Below are positions 5,479-17,535 of a stretch of 64,000 nucleotides of DNA, piece by piece. The stretch's first letter is position 1, and each line of letters begins with the position of its first letter. The position numbers were made by a program, and so were the translations under genes. The stretch is from an uncultured Acidiferrobacteraceae bacterium (GTDB lineage: Bacteria; Pseudomonadota; Gammaproteobacteria; Acidiferrobacterales; SZUA-150): positions 93,279-157,278 of the forward strand of contig CAJVXY010000002.1 of assembly GCA_913009895.1 (NCBI GenBank), given 5' to 3'. The notes under the pieces were generated by a model. It was given only the letters and a program-made list of their open reading frames with translations. It searched no databases and had not been told where the DNA came from.

Positions 5479-7170
5479 ATGGCAAATAACAACGAATTTC
5501 GCACCTGTCCGGATACCGGATTACAGTTTCACCGACCAGCTGAGACGCTAATGAAGTTAAACGCTGTGGTAGCAGTTGTTTTTCTGCTGGTAGGTGGCAT
5601 CCTGGGTTTATTGTTAGGGTTGACACGATGGCCGGCTATTCATTTGCTTGGCGCATCAGATTTTTACAAAGTACTGACACTCCATGGTATTGATGTCTTG
5701 ATTTACTGGATCATTTTCTTTGAAATAGCAGTACTTTATTTTACATCATCGACGTTATTGAAATGTCGGCTGGCAACACCGCGTATGGCCTGGCTGGCTT
5801 TTGCACTAATGTTGATCGGTGCCGTCACTAATAATGTTGCAATTTTGCAAGGCAATTCCAGTGTGATGTTTACGTCTTACGTACCAATGCAGGCAGACCC
5901 GATGTTTTATCTTGGCCTGATTCTGTTTGCTGTTGGGGCGCTCATTGCCAGTTTTGTTTTTCTTGGAACCCTGGTGATTGCCCGGGCCGAGAAGACATAT
6001 GAGGGGTCTATGCCGTTGGTGACTTTTGGTGCCCTGACAGCAGCTATAATTGCAATATTTACCATTGCCTCGGGCGCGATCATTTTAATACCGACATTTT
6101 TATGGTCGGTGGGCTTGATTGAAGGTATTGATCCGATTATGTACCGGGTGATCTGGTGGGCCTTCGGCCATTCCTCGCAGCAAATCAACATGGCCACCAT
6201 GGTTGCAGTGTGGTATGCCGTCGCTGCCGTTGCGTTTGGTGCCAAGCCTTTGTCAGAAAAAATGTGTCGCAGCGCTTTCCTGTTGTACATATTGTTCCTG
6301 CAACTCGCTAGTGCCCATCATATACTCGTGGATCCTGGCATTAGTTCAACCTGGAAAATATTTAATACCAGTTATGCCATGTACCTGGCGGTGCTTGCCA
6401 GTATGATTCATGGCTTGACAGTTCCAGGCGCAATCGAGGCCGCTCAGCGCAAACGGGGTTTCAATAAAGGTTTGTTCGAATGGTTGCGCAAGGCACCCTG
6501 GAGCAATCCCTCATTTTCCGGCGTATTCCTGTCTATCATTATTTTTGGGTTCCTGGGCGGCATATCAGGCGTAGTGATGGGGACTGAGCAAATTAACCTG
6601 ATTATCCATAATACCCTTTATGTACCAGGACACTTTCATGCGACAGTTGCTACCGGTACAACCCTGGCCTTTATGGCTTTAACGTATTGGTTAGTGCCGG
6701 TATTGTTTCGTCGCCAGGTAATTTTTCCAAAGCTTGCAAGTTTGCAACCGTACCTTTTTGGCTTGGGCATGTCAGGGGTCGCCTTGTTTATGATGGGCGC
6801 AGGAACACTTGGCATACCGCGACGGCATTGGGATATTACCTTCGCCGACTCACCATTGACTCATAATTTCCCGGAGATGGCCAACGCGTTGCTCGGTTTC
6901 ATGGGCGTATCAGTACTCCTGGCCGTGGTAGGTGGCGGCCTATTCTGTTTACTGATAGTAGGTTCATTATTATTTGGCAAGCGTTTGAGCCTGACTGAGA
7001 AGGGCGAAACGCCGTTGATAGCAGAACCCGTTACCAGTTACGAAGGTGTTGGAATTGGTAAAATAGTGGCACCGGGGACACTGGTGCTGGCGATGGTGTT
7101 TTTGACAGCATTCGTTCTCTACTATTTTATTAACTGGAAATTCCTGTCGCAGACCTGGGGTTTGAGTTGA
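5479..7170 (+). CDS. Heme-copper oxidase superfamily subunit I, B-family-like, lacking the helix-VI cross-link tyrosine; candidate NO reductase (sNOR/eNOR-type)
   Basis: 563 aa. Ligand His are H69 (LTLHG), H231 (GHSSQQ), H280/H281 (SAHHIL) and H385/H387 (PGHFHAT). These parallel ba3 H72/H233/H282/H283/H384/H386. Position 235, equivalent to ba3 Y237, is Gln. Confidence 0.85.
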   Translation: MANNNEFRTCPDTGLQFHRPAETLMKLNAVVAVVFLLVGGILGLLLGLTRWPAIHLLGASDFYKVLTLHGIDVLIYWIIFFEIAVLYFTSSTLLKCRLATPRMAWLAFALMLIGAVTNNVAILQGNSSVMFTSYVPMQADPMFYLGLILFAVGALIASFVFLGTLVIARAEKTYEGSMPLVTFGALTAAIIAIFTIASGAIILIPTFLWSVGLIEGIDPIMYRVIWWAFGHSSQQINMATMVAVWYAVAAVAFGAKPLSEKMCRSAFLLYILFLQLASAHHILVDPGISSTWKIFNTSYAMYLAVLASMIHGLTVPGAIEAAQRKRGFNKGLFEWLRKAPWSNPSFSGVFLSIIIFGFLGGISGVVMGTEQINLIIHNTLYVPGHFHATVATGTTLAFMALTYWLVPVLFRRQVIFPKLASLQPYLFGLGMSGVALFMMGAGTLGIPRRHWDITFADSPLTHNFPEMANALLGFMGVSVLLAVVGGGLFCLLIVGSLLFGKRLSLTEKGETPLIAEPVTSYEGVGIGKIVAPGTLVLAMVFLTAFVLYYFINWKFLSQTWGLS

Positions 7171-7291: not shown

Positions 7292-8161
7292 ATGCTGAGT
7301 TTACTCGTTAATGTTTTTAAACTTAGAATCGGCTTGCTGATTGCACTAACAGCGTTAGCCGGATTTGCAGTTACGCCTGGCAGGGATTTGGCATCCTGGC
7401 AAATTGCTGTTCTGGGCCTGCTGGTGCTGATGTCTTCAGCCAGTGCTGGTGCCTTTAACCAGTATGCTGAACGAGATCTGGATGCGAACATGAAGCGTAC
7501 CCGGAATCGGCCGTTTGTCACGGGTGAGCTCAATCATAATAGTACCTGGTTATGGGGTATTGCAGGATTATTGGTATTCGCCGTAACCACAGCTGCCTGG
7601 TTATTTAATGCAGCCACCGCATTTTATATTTTTATGGGTGCATTTGTGTATGCGGTGATTTATACCGTATGGCTTAAGAGAAGAAGTGTATTAAATATAG
7701 TTATCGGTGGTCTGGCGGGTAGTTTTGCAGTACTTGGCGGGGCTGCTGCTGCTGATCCCAACCTGGGTCCAGTGGCAATATTACTGGCAGTGGTATTATT
7801 TTTATGGACACCTCCGCACTTCTGGAGCCTGGCGATTGCCCTGCACAAGGACTATGCGGCAGCCAGGGTGCCAATGTTGCCCGTGGTAGTTGGCGATGCT
7901 GCTGCTGCTAAAATTATTTTTACCAATACGGTGTTGCTGGTAATTGCATCATTGGCACCGGTTTATTATGGCCTTGGCTGGGTGTATTTAATTTGTGCAA
8001 TGTCAGGCGGTATATATTTTCTTTATAAAAGCTATCAACTTATCTATACACCTACAAAAAAGATGGCGATGGCCAATTTTTTTGCCTCGATTATCCAGCT
8101 TTCCCTGATCCTGATTGGTGTTATGCTTGATACACAGTTTACAAGATGGGAAGTTTTTTGA
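7292..8161 (+). CDS. ctaB: Protoheme IX farnesyltransferase (heme O synthase)
   Basis: UbiA-family motif NQYAERDLDANMKRTRNRP in a polytopic protein of 289 aa. Confidence 0.85.
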   Translation: MLSLLVNVFKLRIGLLIALTALAGFAVTPGRDLASWQIAVLGLLVLMSSASAGAFNQYAERDLDANMKRTRNRPFVTGELNHNSTWLWGIAGLLVFAVTTAAWLFNAATAFYIFMGAFVYAVIYTVWLKRRSVLNIVIGGLAGSFAVLGGAAAADPNLGPVAILLAVVLFLWTPPHFWSLAIALHKDYAAARVPMLPVVVGDAAAAKIIFTNTVLLVIASLAPVYYGLGWVYLICAMSGGIYFLYKSYQLIYTPTKKMAMANFFASIIQLSLILIGVMLDTQFTRWEVF

Positions 8162-9000
8162 ACTTAAAGCAGAAAAAAGTTTTAATTTTTTTTGTTGTTT
8201 TATTGTTGTTTTTTTCTCCAGCACACTGGCTGGCAGCTGCGGAAACACCTGTAACCAGCAAACCTGAGTTACGGAAATTTGAAAAATCCTCGGCTTTGGT
8301 AACCAGCCAGGGCGCCATTGGCCACGTAACCGGTGATTATACGTTCTACGATCGCCAGCAGCGAAAGGTACTACTCTCAAGCTATCGCGGTAAACCCCTG
8401 ATCATAAGTTTGATATTTACAAGCTGCCATCATATCTGTCCGACAACTACACAAAATTTAGCGAATGTGGTTAAACTTGCCCAGGAGGTTCTGGGTGAAG
8501 ATAGTTTTAACATTGTTAGCATCGGCTTTGATGTACAAAATGACACGCCTGATGCGATGCGCAATTTTGCAATTCAACAAGGCGTGGATGAAATACCTGG
8601 CTGGGAATTTTTAAGTGCTGACGCACCTACAATAAATGCATTGACTGGTGAACTGGGTTTCCAGTTCTTTCCTTCGGCAGGTGGGTTTGATCATTTAATC
8701 CAAACCAGCCTGATCGATGCCGAGGGCGCTGTATATCGCCAAGTGTATGGTACAAAATTCAATACACCATTACTGGTAGATCCATTAAAAGAGCTGGTTT
8801 TTGGGCGACCGGTTAAAGGTTCGCTGGTAACATCGATACACAATAGAATTCGGCTGTTTTGTACTGTCTATGACCCGGCAAGTGGTCGTTATATTTTTGA
8901 TTACTCCCTTTTTGTCGGGATGATTATTGGTTTTATAATATTAATTTCAATTTCTATATGGCTGGTTCGTGAATGGCGAAAATCAGCCACAAGTAAATGA
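8146..9000 (+). CDS. senC: SCO1/SenC family copper chaperone, with N-terminal signal and C-terminal TM helix
   Basis: Thioredoxin-like CxxxC site (FTSCHHICPTT) plus a downstream conserved His (GGFDHLIQTSLID). The C-terminal hydrophobic helix is FVGMIIGFIILISISIWLV. Overlaps the ctaB stop. Confidence 0.75.
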   Translation: MGSFLNLKQKKVLIFFVVLLLFFSPAHWLAAAETPVTSKPELRKFEKSSALVTSQGAIGHVTGDYTFYDRQQRKVLLSSYRGKPLIISLIFTSCHHICPTTTQNLANVVKLAQEVLGEDSFNIVSIGFDVQNDTPDAMRNFAIQQGVDEIPGWEFLSADAPTINALTGELGFQFFPSAGGFDHLIQTSLIDAEGAVYRQVYGTKFNTPLLVDPLKELVFGRPVKGSLVTSIHNRIRLFCTVYDPASGRYIFDYSLFVGMIIGFIILISISIWLVREWRKSATSK

Positions 9001-9100
9001 GAAAAATAATACAAGTAACAAGTAAGTGCAGAATTACATTATGGTATCTTTTTCTCGATATGCGTAAAGTTCGGTATTGTTTAATTAAAGGAGCCTCTCT

Positions 9101-10681
9101 TTGCTAGAAAGAACGCAGAGAAGTGGTCGACGACTCTTCGAATGGGTAGAGGCCGGATTCAATCGAATTGGCGGCCATCGCTGGAATCCATTTTATCAGC
9201 TCGGGGCCCTGTCATTTTTCTTTTTCTGGATCATTACTGTCAGCGGCCTGTATCTTTACATTTTCTTTAGAACTGGCACGACAGCAGCTTATGAATCAGT
9301 AGAATACCTGACTATTGATCAGTGGTATCTTGGCGGTGTGATGCGTAGCTTGCATCGTTACGCATCGGATGCGTTTGTAGTTACAATTGTATTGCATATT
9401 CTGCGTGAGTTCTTCATTGGTCGTTACCGCTACTTTCGCTGGTTCTCCTGGGTTACCGGTGTCCCGTTGCTATGGCTAACGTTTGCGGCGGGAATCGGGG
9501 GCTATTGGCTGGTATGGGACAGCCTGGCCCAGTACATTGCGATAACTACGGCTGAATGGCTGGATTGGCTGCCTTTTCTTACCGATCCGATTGCGCGTAA
9601 TTTTCTCAACCAGGCAAGCATGAGTGATCGATTCTTTTCACTACTGTCATTCCTGCATATCGCCATACCTTTATTCTTGCTATTGGGTATGTGGATACAT
9701 ATCCAGCGTATGACACTTCCTCGCTCCAATCCAACACGTATCCTGGCTGTGGGTACTATCTCGGCGCTGTTAGTGCTTTCGTTTATCCTGCCAGCCACGA
9801 GCCAGGAACCAGCCAACCTTGATAATCTTGTCTTTACGGTAAATCTTGACTGGTTTTATCTCAATTTTTACCCTTTGCTTGATAAATGGTCGGCTGGCAG
9901 CATCTGGGCACTGGTTTTTGGTGTTACATTGTTGTTAGTGGTGATGCCCTGGTTACCGCCTCACAAACCAGAACCCGTTGCCGTAGTCGATCTCGAGAAT
10001 TGCAATGGATGTGGGCGCTGTTTCGATGACTGTCCATTTGGCGCAGTTGATATGTTTCCACGTACAGATAATTTACCATTTTCCCATGAGGCCGTTGTTG
10101 ACAGCGCATTATGCGCCAGTTGCGGCATTTGTGTTGGTTCTTGCCCAACCGCAACGCCATTCAGGCGGGCGACAGCTTTGGTGCCAGGTATAGATATGCC
10201 GCAGTTAAAGATCGCGGATATCCGGGATAAAACCGTACAAGCCGCAGAAAAATTAACTGGTCATGACAGGGTGATAGTATATGGTTGTCGAAATGGGACC
10301 GACATAAACAGGTTACAGGGATCAGGCGTGGCGGTAATTTCATTACCGTGTATTTCTGCTTTACCGCCGTCTTTTATAGATTTTGTGATTGCACGTGGCC
10401 ATGCTGAGGGTGTGTTCCTCACAGGTTGTCAGCAGGGCGATTGTTACTACCGCTTGGGCATTGACTGGACAGAACAACGTATAGCCGGACTTCGTGATCC
10501 TGCGCTTCGAAAAAAGGTGCCACGTGAGCGTGTAGCCACATGCTGGTCCGGCCCGGTAGGATTTGCCAGGCAAAAAGCCGAACTGGTTTCATTCAGGGCC
10601 CAGTTGCTGGAAATGGGACCTAACAGAAGGAACGGTGCAATCATTAATAAAACCGATACACCTGACAGCAAAGGGGGGTGA
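9101..10681 (+). CDS. Fusion protein: di-heme cytochrome b-like membrane domain + 2x[4Fe-4S] ferredoxin + MvhD/FlpD-like domain
   Basis: Two helices each carry His pairs at i/i+14 (HRYASDAFVVTIVLH and HIAIPLFLLLGMWIH), as in bc1/b6f cytochrome b. These are followed by CNGCGRCFDDCP and CASCGICVGSCP. The last domain has VYGCRNG...LPCISALP...LTGCQQGDCYYRLG, which is MvhD-like. TTG start with AGGAG 8 nt upstream. Confidence 0.7.
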   Translation: MLERTQRSGRRLFEWVEAGFNRIGGHRWNPFYQLGALSFFFFWIITVSGLYLYIFFRTGTTAAYESVEYLTIDQWYLGGVMRSLHRYASDAFVVTIVLHILREFFIGRYRYFRWFSWVTGVPLLWLTFAAGIGGYWLVWDSLAQYIAITTAEWLDWLPFLTDPIARNFLNQASMSDRFFSLLSFLHIAIPLFLLLGMWIHIQRMTLPRSNPTRILAVGTISALLVLSFILPATSQEPANLDNLVFTVNLDWFYLNFYPLLDKWSAGSIWALVFGVTLLLVVMPWLPPHKPEPVAVVDLENCNGCGRCFDDCPFGAVDMFPRTDNLPFSHEAVVDSALCASCGICVGSCPTATPFRRATALVPGIDMPQLKIADIRDKTVQAAEKLTGHDRVIVYGCRNGTDINRLQGSGVAVISLPCISALPPSFIDFVIARGHAEGVFLTGCQQGDCYYRLGIDWTEQRIAGLRDPALRKKVPRERVATCWSGPVGFARQKAELVSFRAQLLEMGPNRRNGAIINKTDTPDSKGG

Positions 10682-10684
10682 GCC

Positions 10685-11077
10685 ATCATCTTAATTGAGT
10701 GGAAAGAAGAATTCTCTGTTGGCGTGCCGGGAGTTGATCATGAGCATAAAGTACTGGTTGATCTTTTGAACAGGCTTTATGAAAATTTGATGCGAGAGTC
10801 GACTGCTGAAGAGGTGGAAGAATTTCTTGGCGAGATTTACGCCAGGATATCAGCGCATTTTGCATTGGAGGAAAATATCATGCGCGAGCAACATTATGAC
10901 CAGTATAGTGAACACAAGGCGGACCATGAGCGGTTGCTGGACGAGATTCGTGACATCATGGATGACCATACTGCAATGGAAAATTCGGACAAGGACAAGT
11001 TTGCCGAACGCTTAAAATCATGGTTTGTTAATCACTTCAAGACCCAGGATGCCAGGCTTCATGGACGTTTGTCATAA
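10685..11077 (+). CDS. Hemerythrin-like (bacteriohemerythrin) protein; true start unclear
   Basis: Metal-ligand pattern VDHEH, HFALEE, HKADHE, NHFKTQD. The track ORF starts at GTG 10724, but the conserved N-terminal IEWKEEFSVGV lies upstream. It is reachable only from ATC/ATT codons (10685-10696) or by reading through the upstream TGA (10679-10681). Confidence 0.75.
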   Translation: MILIEWKEEFSVGVPGVDHEHKVLVDLLNRLYENLMRESTAEEVEEFLGEIYARISAHFALEENIMREQHYDQYSEHKADHERLLDEIRDIMDDHTAMENSDKDKFAERLKSWFVNHFKTQDARLHGRLS

Positions 11078-11158
11078 TGACAGAAGTAAGAAATGCCATG
11101 TTAAAGAGAAACTTGATAATTCAGGTAATATTTTACCGCGCAGGATTTTAGGGAAATA

Positions 11159-11704
11159 ATGATGACCAGGGTATTACAATATATAGGCCAGGTAGTAGCA
11201 TACGGAGGGTTCATTATTTTTGTCGGCTACTTGTCTGCTGCACCTGCCTATGTTCACCTGCAGCCAGGCCAGGCTCAAATAAAGCTTAGCTTTAGTCATG
11301 CGGGAAAGCCCGTCAGTGAATGTCGTGAACGTAGCGATGAAGAGCTTGCACGTCTTGCGCCTAATATGCGCGTAAGAAAAGTATGCCCCAGAGAACGTTC
11401 CGGTGTAGCTGTAGTGCTGGAGGTGGATGACAAGTTGTTGTATAGCGATATTTTACAACCCTCCGGCCTGAAAAAAGACGGGACATCAACAACATACAGA
11501 AAATTCACGGTTAAAGCCGGTAAGTATAAAATAAAAATAAAACTCAAGGATGACTTCCGGAAATCAACGACCATCAAAGATGTGTCAAAGTTAAATGCAG
11601 GTGATTTTAATTACACATATTCCCGGAAAGTCTATCTCGGTGCAGGAAAAATAATGGTCATTGATTTTAATAAGGAGGCAGATGGATTTGTTTTCAGTTT
11701 TTGA
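11159..11704 (+). CDS. Hypothetical N-terminally anchored protein (181 aa)
   Basis: One N-terminal TM helix (VVAYGGFIIFVGYLSAAPAYV) followed by a Lys-rich soluble domain that looks beta-rich. I recognise no family. Placed between the hemerythrin and the second heme-copper-like gene. Confidence 0.5.
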   Translation: MMTRVLQYIGQVVAYGGFIIFVGYLSAAPAYVHLQPGQAQIKLSFSHAGKPVSECRERSDEELARLAPNMRVRKVCPRERSGVAVVLEVDDKLLYSDILQPSGLKKDGTSTTYRKFTVKAGKYKIKIKLKDDFRKSTTIKDVSKLNAGDFNYTYSRKVYLGAGKIMVIDFNKEADGFVFSF

Positions 11705-11793
11705 TGAAGTTAGTATAGTGATAACAGGCAATTTAATCTTCCCGGTAGATAACCAGAGCTTTTATCTGTTTTAAAAAAAGTTAAACATACGAT

Positions 11794-13161
11794 ATGCAGG
11801 AAGATTTCATACTATCGGTACCAAAAGATAACCGTCGGGATTTAGCCAAAGGCTGGCTCTGGCTGGGTTTAATTTCTCTATTAGTATCAGGAATTTTTTC
11901 AGTTCTCCTGGTAGTCTTTCGCACGCCCTATATCCAGAATATTTTCTCCTCGGTAGATTTTTTTCGAACTGCTCTGGTTGTCCATGTAGATCTTTCTGTT
12001 TTGGTCTGGTTTCTTGCTTTTGGTGGCGTGTTCTGGAGTTTGAATTCCACTACCAGTTTCATACGGCTCGGTTGGTCAGCATTATTCTTTGCCACGCTGG
12101 GTACGATAGTGATGGTGCTGGCGCCATTTATTGGTAATGGCAACCCGCTGATGAGTAATTATATTCCTGTCTTGCAGGATTCAGTGTTTATAACAGGTTT
12201 GTTGTTTTTTGCATTTGGTATCACCTTGCTGGTTCTGCGAAGTATGTTTGCTATCCCACTGGTAGGGCTGCAAATTACAGGTGTTGGTTCATTACGTTTC
12301 GGCCTGAATACCGCTGCTATATCTGCAATTATGGCGCTGCTCGCATTTTTCTGGTCTTTTCTGGCTATGCCGGATTTTGTTACTGGAAAAGCCTTTTACG
12401 AACTCCTGTTTTGGGGTGGCGGCCACATGCTGCAATTTACATATACATTGCTCATGCTCGTCGCCTGGTTGTGGTTGGCTACTGCTTCGGGTCTCCGCAT
12501 TGCCCTGAGTCCAAGAGTTGTGCTGCTTCTTTTCATATTAGGTCTAATGGCGGTATTCACGGTTCCGCTAATTTATTATTCCTACAAAATAATTTCAGTT
12601 GAACACATTAAACTCTTTACCTGGTTGATGGCGTATGGTGGCAGCCTGGCCACACTACCATTGGCTTTGGCAATTCTTCACGGTTTTTTTATTAGCTCAC
12701 CAGCATCAGGATCACAGACACCCTTACGAGCAAGTTTGATCATGTCTATGATTTTATTTGGTGTCGGTGGTGTTATCGGTTTCCTGATCGAGGGGAGTAA
12801 CGTTACGATTCCCGCCCATTATCACGGTTCTATTGTCGGCGTTACATTGGCATTTATGGGGATGACGTATAATTTACTGCCGCGTTTTGGTTATAAGTAT
12901 CCTGATGTGAAATTGGCTCGTATTCAACCCTATATATATGGAGGTGGCCAGTTATTGCATGTATCAGGATTAGTATGGTCAGGAGGATATGGTGTCCAGC
13001 GAAAAGTTGCAGGTATTGAGCAGGGGCTCGACGACATGGAAAAAATTGCCGCGATGGGCTTGATGGGCCTGGGGGGATTGGTCGCGATTATAGGCGGACT
13101 GATGTTTCTCCTAGTGGTTTATAAAGCCATGGCAAACAGGAAAACGCAAGAAACAGCCTAA
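11794..13161 (+). CDS. Heme-copper oxidase subunit I-like polytopic membrane protein with incomplete metal-ligand set
   Basis: 455 aa and about 12 TM. Has LVVHVDL (H64), FWGGGHMLQF (H211) and IPAHYHGSIVG (H342/H344), at spacings reminiscent of HCO helices II, VI and X. There is no HH pair where helix VII would be; YY261-262 sits there. Confidence 0.55.
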   Translation: MQEDFILSVPKDNRRDLAKGWLWLGLISLLVSGIFSVLLVVFRTPYIQNIFSSVDFFRTALVVHVDLSVLVWFLAFGGVFWSLNSTTSFIRLGWSALFFATLGTIVMVLAPFIGNGNPLMSNYIPVLQDSVFITGLLFFAFGITLLVLRSMFAIPLVGLQITGVGSLRFGLNTAAISAIMALLAFFWSFLAMPDFVTGKAFYELLFWGGGHMLQFTYTLLMLVAWLWLATASGLRIALSPRVVLLLFILGLMAVFTVPLIYYSYKIISVEHIKLFTWLMAYGGSLATLPLALAILHGFFISSPASGSQTPLRASLIMSMILFGVGGVIGFLIEGSNVTIPAHYHGSIVGVTLAFMGMTYNLLPRFGYKYPDVKLARIQPYIYGGGQLLHVSGLVWSGGYGVQRKVAGIEQGLDDMEKIAAMGLMGLGGLVAIIGGLMFLLVVYKAMANRKTQETA

Positions 13162-13256
13162 AGAACGTAAAAAATATCTACAGCAGTTGCCGGATGAAAT
13201 GGTTTTTTCTAATACTACTAATCGTTGATTGCAGTTAGTTAAGCAAAAAGTAATGA

Positions 13257-13466
13257 TTACGTTTTCGTAAAGTACTGCGTCAGTTGAAATAGCGCGAGGG
13301 CTAGCGTAAGGATAATCACGAAAAAAATCAGGCTACGATTTTGAAGACGTTCACCCCGTTTTTCTTCAATACGATTGAGAATCCAGTCTGATCCAAGATA
13401 GAGCGTTATTCCTGCTAAAGTAAACAAGACTATTTCCAAAAGTTGACTCCTGTGAATAATAAGCAA
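13257..13466 (-). CDS. Small two-TM membrane protein (hypothetical)
   Basis: Two hydrophobic helices separated by RIEEKRGERLQNR. An internal TTG at 13439 has AGGAG 7 nt upstream and may be the real start. No family recognised. Confidence 0.35.
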   Translation of the reverse strand: MLIIHRSQLLEIVLFTLAGITLYLGSDWILNRIEEKRGERLQNRSLIFFVIILTLALALFQLTQYFTKT

Positions 13467-13816
13467 TATTAAAAGTTAGCCAGAAAATATGCCAGGGGAC
13501 AAGTAATGCAAAAAAATTGGGTTCTTGGCCAACATGTCCAGGCATTTTTATCAATCTTACTGCCAAACCCCAAGCAGTAATTTCGTTCAAGTTTATCACG
13601 ATGCTGAATTTGCCGTAAAAAGAATTTTCCCAGGAGGTTTATGAGTGCCTGACTCGGAGGTATATATAAAAGTGATTTATCAATGTTTGCCCTGTTAAAT
13701 TAAAAGCAGGAGAGTACCCACTATAAAATTACGGGTATATATTTTTTAACATATCTCAACTAAATCATAGGATATTTCAGAAAATGGGCATATATTGTTG
13801 AGATGCAATATATGTT

Positions 13817-13830
13817 TGATGTAAGTCAAT
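13817..13830. promoter_or_regulatory. FNR/Dnr-type box TTGAT-GTAA-GTCAA
   Basis: Matches TTGAT-N4-ATCAA at 9 of 10 positions and exactly fits the TTGAT-N4-GTCAA variant. It lies about 156 bp upstream of the nirI-like start. Confidence 0.55.
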
Positions 13831-13985
13831 TACTTGGAAGTTAGTCTATGGTTAAACTTACGTAATAGTAATCTGGCCACGTTGCAGGTTGCTTGATTTT
13901 TTTTTGAGTGGTGTATCTGGATTTATAAACAGAGGCTGTCATAAAAAATTTATCTAAACATAGAATATTAGACTTACCCTGTCTT

Positions 13986-15524
13986 ATGGTGGGCATATTC
14001 TTGCTCACGGTGAGTGCTGGTGTATTTGCTGGTGGTACACTGGAAACCTACCCTGAAATAAAAAATTTTTTCCCTGCTTTAACCCGTGTCGGTGATATTG
14101 CTGGCGAGCCGCCTGCAGCACCTGTGTACCAGCAAGGTAAACTTCTGGGATATGTATTTTCTACACAAGCAATAGCACCTATTCCTGCTTATTCGGGTAA
14201 ACCTATTAACATCCTGGTTGGCTTGAATCTTTCCGGACAGATAACGGGCCTTAAGATAATCGAACATCACGAGCCAATTTTATTGGTTGGCGTTTCTGAA
14301 AAACAATTAAAAGAATACATTGATCAGTACCAGGGCGTGGACATTTTTGATCGCGTCCGGGTAGGGGCAGAAAAGAAAGCGGGCTCAGTGGGTATTGACA
14401 CGATTAGTGGCGCGACCATTACTGTGATGGTCTCCAATGCCACTATTGTCAATTCTGCCAGAACCGTTGCGGCCAGGTACGGCATTACTCGTAGTAGAAA
14501 GTCGGGTAAAAGCTCGCCAGTAATTTTAACAAGACAGGCCCCGGTTGCGGCTGAAAAAGAACTTCCGGCAAATAACCCGGCTGAGACTCCCTTGGTCTCA
14601 GAAGCGCCAGACCTGGAGCGGGCCTGGGTCACCATCTGGGAAGGTCGTGCTATTGAGATTGGTATTTTGGTTTTTGCCCTGTTCTTATTGACAGCAATCC
14701 TGTTATTTCAGGATTGGATTGTACGACGACCAACCCTGTATGAATATTTACGGAATGGTTATTTATTATTTACTGTTTTTTTTATTGGTGGTTATGCGTT
14801 GGCACAGCTTTCTATTGTTAATGTTTTGACCTTTGTTCATGCTTTTGTCCATGACTTCAGGTGGGAAACCTTTGCCCTGGACCCCCTTATATTTATTCTC
14901 TGGGTATTTGTTGCATTCACTTTGTTGTTATGGGGGCGCGGGGTGTACTGCGGCTGGTTATGTCCATTTGGTGCTATGCAGGAATTGATAAACATGGTTG
15001 CCCGTCGCTTTAAGGTTAAGCAGTGGGAATTCCCGACTATGGTTCATGAGCGTCTTTGGGCAATAAAATACGTGGTGTTGATTGCATTGTTCGGCATCTC
15101 ACTACAGTCACTATCATTGGCAGAGTATTACGCAGAAATCGAACCATTTAAAACCACGATTCTGCGTTTTGATCGGGCATGGCCATTTGTGCTTTATGTG
15201 GTGGTCCTGTTAATGATTTCTATAGTCAATCGCAAGTTTTATTGTAAATATATTTGCCCCCTGGCAGCTGCCCTCATAATTCCGGCCCAAAACCGGGTTT
15301 TTGACTGGGTAAGAAGACGCAATGAATGTGGTAAACCATGCCAGGTCTGCGCTGATTTATGTGAAGTACAGGCGATCGCACCAACTGGTGAAATTAACAA
15401 GAATGAATGTCATTATTGTCTGGACTGCCAGGTAACATACTGGAATGAATACAAATGCCCACCCCTGGTCCAGGAACGTAAAAAGCGGGAACGGCATATT
15501 GCTGTTCATAGCCTTTCGAATTAA
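13986..15524 (+). CDS. nirI: NosR/NirI-family membrane protein (periplasmic FMN-binding domain, TM domain with CX3CP motifs, C-terminal polyferredoxin)
   Basis: FMN_bind-like GIDTISGATITV, CGWLCPFGAMQE and CKYICPLAA, and C-terminal CGKPCQVCADLCE / CHYCLDCQ...CPP. Sits directly 5' of nirS. It is shorter than classical NosR, and its start is uncertain. Confidence 0.75.
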   Translation: MVGIFLLTVSAGVFAGGTLETYPEIKNFFPALTRVGDIAGEPPAAPVYQQGKLLGYVFSTQAIAPIPAYSGKPINILVGLNLSGQITGLKIIEHHEPILLVGVSEKQLKEYIDQYQGVDIFDRVRVGAEKKAGSVGIDTISGATITVMVSNATIVNSARTVAARYGITRSRKSGKSSPVILTRQAPVAAEKELPANNPAETPLVSEAPDLERAWVTIWEGRAIEIGILVFALFLLTAILLFQDWIVRRPTLYEYLRNGYLLFTVFFIGGYALAQLSIVNVLTFVHAFVHDFRWETFALDPLIFILWVFVAFTLLLWGRGVYCGWLCPFGAMQELINMVARRFKVKQWEFPTMVHERLWAIKYVVLIALFGISLQSLSLAEYYAEIEPFKTTILRFDRAWPFVLYVVVLLMISIVNRKFYCKYICPLAAALIIPAQNRVFDWVRRRNECGKPCQVCADLCEVQAIAPTGEINKNECHYCLDCQVTYWNEYKCPPLVQERKKRERHIAVHSLSN

Positions 15525-15634
15525 TGATATGTATCAACAAAATTTGATGGTTATGTTAAATATGCTGGTGCCAGACGTAAAACGTATGAATACATCACCA
15601 AAAGCTGATATATGAAGGAGCTGGTATACTCGAC

Positions 15635-15648
15635 TTGACTTAGGTTAA
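15635..15648. promoter_or_regulatory. Candidate FNR/Dnr-type box TTGAC-TTAG-GTTAA
   Basis: Lies about 150 bp upstream of nirS. Its half-sites are identical to the reverse complement of the 4443-4456 box. Confidence 0.4.
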
Positions 15649-15747
15649 AGCAGAAATACGGTAATACATGTCAGTATAGGCATTATTTTCTTGGGATAAG
15701 GGTTCACAATTTATGTAGAATAACTCTTATTGACACAATATGTTTGA

Positions 15748-17535
<1,788 letters not shown>

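Follow-up and report, generated by a model that had tools for sequence, protein, structure and literature searches.

A bacteriohemerythrin gene in a 64,000-nucleotide (nt) stretch of an uncultured Acidiferrobacteraceae bacterium (contig CAJVXY010000002.1, positions 93,279 to 157,278; hereafter the window) has no canonical start codon ahead of its conserved N-terminus. It follows, in the same frame and after a single TGA, a gene for a membrane protein with cytochrome b (cyt b), iron-sulfur (FeS) and MvhD domains. We conclude that the hemerythrin is probably encoded by a separate gene and translated from the near-cognate codon AUC at 10685-10687 into an unfused protein of normal length, 130 amino acids (aa). 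The AUC start is favored because this ATC is homologous to the ATG of the family, is conserved in three lineages and stands behind a Shine-Dalgarno (SD) sequence of 10 base pairs (bp). The N-terminus encoded from the ATC is under purifying selection, and the ancestral junction was an ATGA overlap between two genes.

The upstream open reading frame (ORF) closes with AGC AAA GGG GGG TGA (...DSKGG-TGA), the stop being at 10679-10681, exactly where a first-pass annotation of this stretch had placed a lone in-frame TGA between the two genes. Past the TGA the frame continues with GCC ATC ATC TTA ATT GAG TGG and on to GTG, which encodes AIILIEWKEEFSVGV, and then stays open to a TAA at 11075-11077. 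The TGA is one codon before the ATC, and the first canonical start comes 13 codons past it; this GTG at 10724 is the first ATG, GTG or TTG in the hemerythrin frame, 14 codons in and downstream of the conserved N-terminus. Residues 2-14 of the proposed protein, which precede the GTG, are ILIEWKEEFSVG. Provided that formyl-methionine (fMet) is inserted at the AUC, the protein would begin MILIEWKEEF, and the N-terminal peptide predicted for a start at 10685 is (M)ILIEWKEEFSVGVPGVDHEHK. The upstream protein has 526 aa when counted from its first canonical start, a putative one. By chance, two such ORFs share a frame one time in three. Three other assemblies, ERZ909564 (locus L140), ERZ909563 (L141) and ERZ1742236 (L135/L142), are 98.0-100% identical to the window at the nucleotide level and all read AGCAAAGGGGGGTGAGCCATCATCTTAATTGAGTGG, with the 6-G run, the TGA and GCC ATC ATC as in the window. 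These same-population assemblies, and the close relatives that share the ATC, were recovered by exact-protein look-ups.

Family alignments show where the protein ought to begin. The hemerythrin matches NCBIfam NF033749 at 101 bits (cutoff 84), its residues 4-127 covering profile positions 1-125. The first profile position falls on residue 4 of the AIILIEW stretch, the L of LIEW. Residue 3 of the solved chain of Methylococcus capsulatus McHr (4XPW/4XPX) aligns to the same L. Both alignments put residue 4 before GTG 10724, in agreement with the earlier observation that no canonical start precedes the hemerythrin N-terminus. The match to TIGR02481 is likewise above threshold (96.8 bits, cutoff 51.75). 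In Pfam, PF01814 is the sole match above cutoff, TipAS being sub-threshold at 16.9 bits versus 23.8. The di-iron ligand pattern H...HxxxE...HxxxH...HxxxxD is present (H22, H59/E63, H78/H82 and H118/D123), and these positions are invariant or nearly so in the alignment of homologues. Homologues are 130-133 aa in length, the full-length ones begin M-[S/A/T]-L-I-E-W, and they are labelled Gammaproteobacteria, Acidiferrobacterales or Sulfuricaulis; the sequences come from marine metagenomes. The predicted product is a single-domain bacteriohemerythrin of 130 aa, not a member of the RIC family. In being single-domain, about 130 aa long and furnished with the same ligand pattern it resembles McHr (PDB 4XPX) and DcrH-Hr (PDB 2AVK). 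Identity to McHr is only about 30%, judged by eye from the HMMER alignment, and unlike both proteins the window hemerythrin sits in a SenC/cyt b-FeS-MvhD/COX1-like module of denitrification type. NorA of Ralstonia eutropha and RIC/YtfE had been put forward as precedents. The likeness holds for a di-iron, hemerythrin-like fold encoded next to genes of nitric oxide (NO) metabolism, and it is an analogy only. The RIC/YtfE/NorA repair proteins are about 220 aa long and combine an N-terminal ScdA_N domain with a hemerythrin-like domain, whereas the window protein has 130 aa, carries PF01814 alone and finds its best family match in bacteriohemerythrin.

Homologues of the hemerythrin were sought among 5.8 billion proteins, and the best 120 hits were taken. 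The two closest had been called short, P0001 at 108 aa (92% identity) and P0105 at 95 aa (80%). At the junction of the relative L001 (92-93% aa identity) the DNA reads AAAGGGGG TGA GTC ATC ATC TTA ATA GAG TGG, and at that of L002/L003 (79-80% for L002) it reads AAAGGGGG TGA ATC ATC GTC TTA ATA GAA TGG. Neither has a canonical start ahead of IEW. The counterpart of GTG 10724 is GTA in L001 and GAG in L002, which rules it out as a conserved start. Scans of genomes and metagenome contigs gave 131 loci. In the whole fetched set, the window included, 125 loci cover the N-terminus, and the codon aligned to 10685-10687 is canonical in 116 of them (ATG in 110, GTG in 5, TTG in 1). ATC occupies that position only in the window, L001 and L002/L003, and in the few other exceptions an ATG stands nearby, one or a few codons away. 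The ATC has been kept in three lineages with pairwise synonymous divergence (dS) of 0.42-0.87. No further member of this ATC clade was found by the genome and metagenome contig scans, in which all matches were at most 65% identical; L137 is a further clade member, on a contig that begins inside the hemerythrin gene and does not cover the junction.

The same relatives show that the shared frame is not a property of the gene pair. With 5 G instead of 6 in the G-run, L001 and L002/L003 have their upstream ORF in another frame, offset by 2 nt, where it reads GGG GGT GAG/GAA TCA TCA/TCG TCT TAA (…SKGGESSS and stop) and ends within hemerythrin codons 4-5. Through its extra G the window has the TGA at 10679-10681 in the upstream frame and lacks the four-residue tail ESSS. 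Only one of the four distinct junction types shares the frame, and the match between the two frames is lineage-specific and comes from a 1-nt indel in the G-run.

The GGGGGGTGA run overlapping the stop, described in the first-pass annotation as SD-like, is a real SD match and the strongest anti-SD complement in the window. In full, AGGGGGGTGA pairs with the canonical 16S rRNA 3' tail GAUCACCUCCUUA in a predicted duplex of -16.3 kcal/mol, the anti-SD being assumed canonical; a search of the 64-kb window with Rfam gave no 16S rRNA hit from which the host tail could be read. Its 3' end is 3 nt before the ATC, and the G-run is 6 nt from it. Among 127,972 14-nt segments on both strands of the 64 kb, this is the single strongest site. 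The strong SD is kept in L001 and L002, and the SDs of the ATC clade are the three strongest of 103 distinct homologous loci (-16.3 to -16.6); the 100 loci with canonical starts average -9.0 ± 2.8, the best of them reaching -15.3. No SD-like match precedes GTG 10724, and the nearest other strong site begins at 10727, downstream of it. Initiation at an ATC or ATT behind this run had been offered as one of three explanations for the missing start. It finds support specifically for the ATC at 10685-10687, where a homologue of the family ATG, an ATC throughout the clade and a 10-bp SD coincide. A hairpin that would sequester the SD (GGGGUGA/UCAUCUU) was predicted in the alignment fold and rejected, being G-U rich, without covariation and no more stable than shuffled sequences.

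We compared the hemerythrin gene among the three lineages of the ATC clade by the Nei-Gojobori method over 131 codons. The ratio of nonsynonymous to synonymous divergence (dN/dS) is 0.077 between the window and L001 (dS 0.42), 0.172 between the window and L002 (dS 0.73) and 0.128 between L001 and L002 (dS 0.87). No indel or stop occurs in the gene in the window, L001 or L002. In codons 2-14 (ATC to GGC), with about 7.5 synonymous and 31.5 nonsynonymous sites, synonymous and nonsynonymous differences number 2/0 for window-L001, 5/2 for window-L002 and 3/2 for L001-L002. One-sided Fisher tests give p = 0.028, 0.0007 and 0.032, respectively, for this synonymous excess, the pairs being non-independent and the counts small. 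The signal is that expected if the codons ahead of GTG 10724 evolve as a translated frame under purifying selection.

Four outgroup loci (L138, L144, L145 and L146) have the same gene order, cyt b gene, hemerythrin and 17x-aa gene, with canonical starts. In L138 the upstream frame ends GGG TCA TGA and the hemerythrin frame begins ATG ACC ATT ATC GAG TGG. The corresponding frames of L144 are ATG TCA TGA and ATG AGC CTG ATC GAA TGG. Both junctions read GTC ATG A where the clade has its ATC, and both are classical 4-nt ATGA stop/start overlaps. In L145 (2501-2523) and L146 (739-761), the hemerythrin starts with ATG and shares 23 nt with the upstream ORF. The distance from stop to start is +3 nt in the window, -10 nt in L001/L002 and -4 nt (ATGA) in L138/L144, and the upstream stop evidently shifts easily against the hemerythrin start in the evolution of this gene pair. 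In the window and its relatives the SD is located inside the upstream ORF or at its end, and in L138 and L144 it is intragenic. The comparison of orthologues that had been proposed as a check on the junction thus finds the hemerythrin separate and ATG-started in the outgroups, with ATC at the start position in the clade, and in a shared frame that is not conserved.

These junctions show how the start was lost. In the ancestor, the cyt b-FeS-MvhD and hemerythrin genes overlapped by ATGA, with the stop TGA inside ...TCATGA.... A single G-to-C transversion changed the ATG of the hemerythrin to ATC and the TGA of the upstream frame to TCA; set against the outgroup TCATGA, the GAG TCA TCA TCT TAA and ATC ATC of L001 therefore point to one G-to-C change that hit start and stop together. 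The upstream ORF was then extended by two codons to TCA TCT TAA, a state that survives in L001 and L002. Later, in the lineage of the window, the extra G gave the upstream frame its stop at the SD-embedded TGA, a single codon ahead of the ATC, trimming ESSS, and the in-frame arrangement of the two ORFs is an accidental outcome. Initiation by fMet-tRNA at the weak AUC would be sustained by the 10-bp SD at optimal spacing. Translational coupling probably helps, as ribosomes would terminate 3 nt upstream of the ATC in the window and 7 nt downstream in the relatives, and such coupling would continue that implied by the ancestral ATGA overlap.

Published work makes this proposal feasible. In E. coli, AUC initiates at about 1-2% of the AUG level (0.02-3% across constructs), with an N-terminal Met seen by mass spectrometry (bioRxiv 10.1101/063800). 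For dnaA of Deinococcus, N-terminal proteomics places the start at an ATC that is conserved in three species (PMC2830850). Suboptimal start codons tend to go with stronger SDs (PMC5622118), and overlapping gene pairs are commonly coupled in translation, usually with an intragenic SD (PMC6728339).

Several points weigh against initiation at AUC 10685. Because AUC initiates poorly, in E. coli at 1-2% of the AUG level or below, the yield may be low. The SD pairing rests on the assumed canonical anti-SD. The ATC is found in three independent lineages only, and in L001 and L002 the overlapping upstream frame could partly constrain it. The two substitutions in the overlap are silent for the upstream protein and change the hemerythrin, albeit conservatively. 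Further near-cognate codons, ATC 10688 and ATT 10694, are also candidate starts.

It is possible, though not likely, that one of these latter codons (ATC 10688, or ATT 10694, which is ATA in the relatives) starts a separate hemerythrin mainly through termination-reinitiation rather than SD-directed de novo initiation. Codon 5 is near-cognate (ATT/ATA) in all three lineages, in L001 and L002 it overlaps the upstream TAA by one base to form TAATA, a near-cognate analogue of the common TAATG overlap, and translational coupling is frequent where two genes overlap by a short stretch (PMC6728339). Yet ATT 10694 is 15 nt past the G-run, too distant for the SD, and with the upstream stop of the window now at 10679-10681, the TAATT overlap no longer includes a stop. 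Codon 3 is GTC in L002, and the family start aligns to 10685, not to 10688 or 10694. An extension of the AUC reading, which we regard as speculative and rather unlikely, is that the AUC start is a selected setting. With a very strong SD and a very weak codon placed right at the upstream stop, hemerythrin would be made only as ribosomes complete cyt b-FeS-MvhD, or its synthesis would respond to the level of initiation factor 3 (IF3). This would fix a low ratio of hemerythrin to its membrane partner in a putative NO-handling module, with a trace of four-domain fusion from UGA leakage in the window lineage. We consider it improbable that loss of the start silenced or crippled the gene, leaving an untranslated relic or only a truncated 117-aa product from GTG 10724. 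Gene callers did take internal starts across the clade (117, 108 and 95 aa), and AUC is intrinsically weak. Such a relic is hard to square with a dN/dS of 0.08-0.17 over dS values up to 0.87 without a frameshift or stop in any lineage, or with the synonymous excess in the 13 codons ahead of GTG 10724. That GTG, which becomes GTA or GAG in the relatives, has no SD-like match before it, and the strongest SD in 64 kb is maintained ahead of the ATC instead.

The two remaining explanations of the first-pass annotation fare worse. Readthrough of the TGA at 10679-10681, by a near-cognate tRNA, selenocysteine insertion or recoding, would yield a functional four-domain cyt b-FeS-MvhD-hemerythrin fusion, and the two ORFs are indeed in frame in the window and in the three further same-population assemblies. 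Background leakiness of UGA would give traces of such a fusion. The ORFs are, however, in different frames in the 5-G relatives L001 and L002/L003. The 120 closest homologues of the upstream protein, which are 505-552 aa long, all lack PF01814, and the 120 best hits of the hemerythrin are at most 151 aa long. No Rfam family matches within 10300-11300 at E ≤ 1, a consensus fold of the three junctions contains no compensatory pair and no covariation, and no unusually stable structure was found at the junction (single-sequence fold z-scores -0.4 to +0.9). Because the frame is not conserved and neither a fused homologue among the 120 best hits of either protein nor a junction structure or Rfam family was found, a functional readthrough fusion is unsupported, and we judge it very unlikely. 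Reassignment of TGA is ruled out, as 14 of the 51 long ORFs of the window, neighboring genes among them, terminate at this codon. A fusion by -1 frameshifting in L001/L002 was likewise rejected: a slip on the G-run lands on the hemerythrin-frame TGA, and by eye there is no X XXY YYZ site from the TGA to the upstream TAA. Scarcely credible is the idea that the 6-G run, and with it the in-frame TGA, is a homopolymer error of sequencing or assembly, even though homopolymers are error-prone and the relatives carry 5 G. Six G are present in four assemblies from three European Nucleotide Archive (ENA) analyses, one of them from a strain 2% divergent over 3.4 kb, and the sample ERZ909563 yielded the 6-G sequence (L141) and the 5-G relative (L001) as two separate contigs. 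The same agreement among assemblies, together with an ancestral state of two genes joined by an ATGA overlap, speaks against a nonsense mutation or error that split an ancestral fusion. A separate hemerythrin started at AUC 10685 remains the reading that we favor.

Table 1. Features of the cyt b-FeS-MvhD/hemerythrin junction and the adjoining gene, in window coordinates.
Feature	Position	Strand	Remarks
Upstream gene	9101..10681	+	Membrane cytochrome b, two 4Fe-4S motifs, FlpD/MvhD; Pfam PF00033, PF13631, PF12838, PF02662
Shine-Dalgarno sequence AGGGGGGTGA	10672..10681	+	10 contiguous predicted pairs with the 16S tail; upstream stop TGA inside
G-run, 6 G	10673..10678	+	5 G in relatives L001 and L002/L003
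TGA stop of upstream gene	10679..10681	+	In frame with the hemerythrin in the window lineage only
ATC, proposed start	10685..10687	+	Positional homologue of the family ATG; 6 nt past the G-run
Bacteriohemerythrin coding sequence as proposed	10685..11077	+	130 aa, stop TAA 11075-11077; NF033749, TIGR02481, PF01814
GTG, first canonical in-frame start	10724..10726	+	Start of gene callers, 117-aa product; not conserved as start
Next module gene, 181-aa protein	11159..11704	+	No Pfam or NCBIfam match; syntenic in L001, L002, L138, L144, L145

The hemerythrin belongs to a larger module at 8146-13161, made up of SenC, cyt b-2x[4Fe-4S]-MvhD, hemerythrin, a 17x-aa protein and a divergent COX1-like protein of 455 aa. 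The module is also present in L001, L002, L138, L145 and, among L004-L134, more than 80 loci of metagenome-assembled genomes of Alpha- and Gammaproteobacteria, and it appears to be uncharacterized. At most of its loci, 500-600 nt separate the end of the cyt b gene from the hemerythrin, a gap that accommodates another gene; in L139 and L143, this position is taken by a 167-181-aa gene. Homologues of the 181-aa protein number more than 1000 (E ≤ 1e-20); almost all of them are unnamed or 'hypothetical', and the protein always occurs in this module. A called ORF of 30 aa at 11682-11774, located by correspondence with L135 2043-2135 and L140 2459-2551, overlaps the end of the 181-aa gene and precedes the COX1-like gene. 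The 455-aa heme-copper-oxidase (HCO)-like protein (11794-13161) has a weak match to Pfam COX1 (43 bits, E 3e-11) and none to NCBIfam, in contrast to a 563-aa COX1 at 5479-7170 (236 bits). The 455-aa protein may be a divergent member of the nitric oxide reductase (NOR) type or of another HCO family.

Between the COX1-like gene and a NosR-like gene, the 825-nt gap at 13161-14023 is 80-84% identical, with indels, to L135 3566-4299, although L135 is otherwise 98% identical. It looks like a local hypervariable or recombined stretch. The segment at 13986-17535 holds the NosR-like protein (FMN_bind + Fer4_5) and then a 581-aa ORF, whose counterpart in L001 has cytochrome cd1 (nirS-type) domains; in L138, a nosZ-like gene follows. 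The neighborhood is taken to be a denitrification island because of these NosR-like, cytochrome cd1 (L001) and nosZ-like (L138) genes.

The hemerythrin start has known relatives in kind. As with infC and pcnB (AUU, E. coli) and dnaA (ATC, Deinococcus), a conserved N-terminus lies ahead of the canonical starts, an AUH codon occupies the homologous position and the arrangement is conserved in relatives. Gene callers mis-annotate the starts of such genes, as they do here (PMC2830850; 10.1101/063800). In contrast to those cases, the window gene encodes not a housekeeping regulator but an accessory redox protein, and the AUC is a predicted start. The AUC also differs in having arisen inside an ATGA overlap, through the same mutation that removed the upstream stop, and no logic like that of IF3 autoregulation is evident. 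The junction shares with ATGA/TAATG coupled pairs a stop and start within 3-10 nt and an SD inside the upstream gene (PMC6728339), but its restart codon is AUC instead of AUG, and coupling here is putative. The case belongs to a known, rare class, that of conserved near-cognate starts missed by gene callers, and involves no new recoding mechanism and no new protein or domain architecture.

What follows for this family is in part practical. The hemerythrin is mis-annotated in every database copy, at 117, 108 or 95 aa instead of 130, and other genes that lose their start codon within an ATGA overlap will be mis-annotated in the same way. The locus is also a clean natural example of a single substitution that abolished a start together with a stop, of a lesion that has persisted although the gene is under purifying selection, and of its association with an exceptional SD. 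For the biology of these bacteria, the conserved module around the hemerythrin may hold more interest than the start codon itself.

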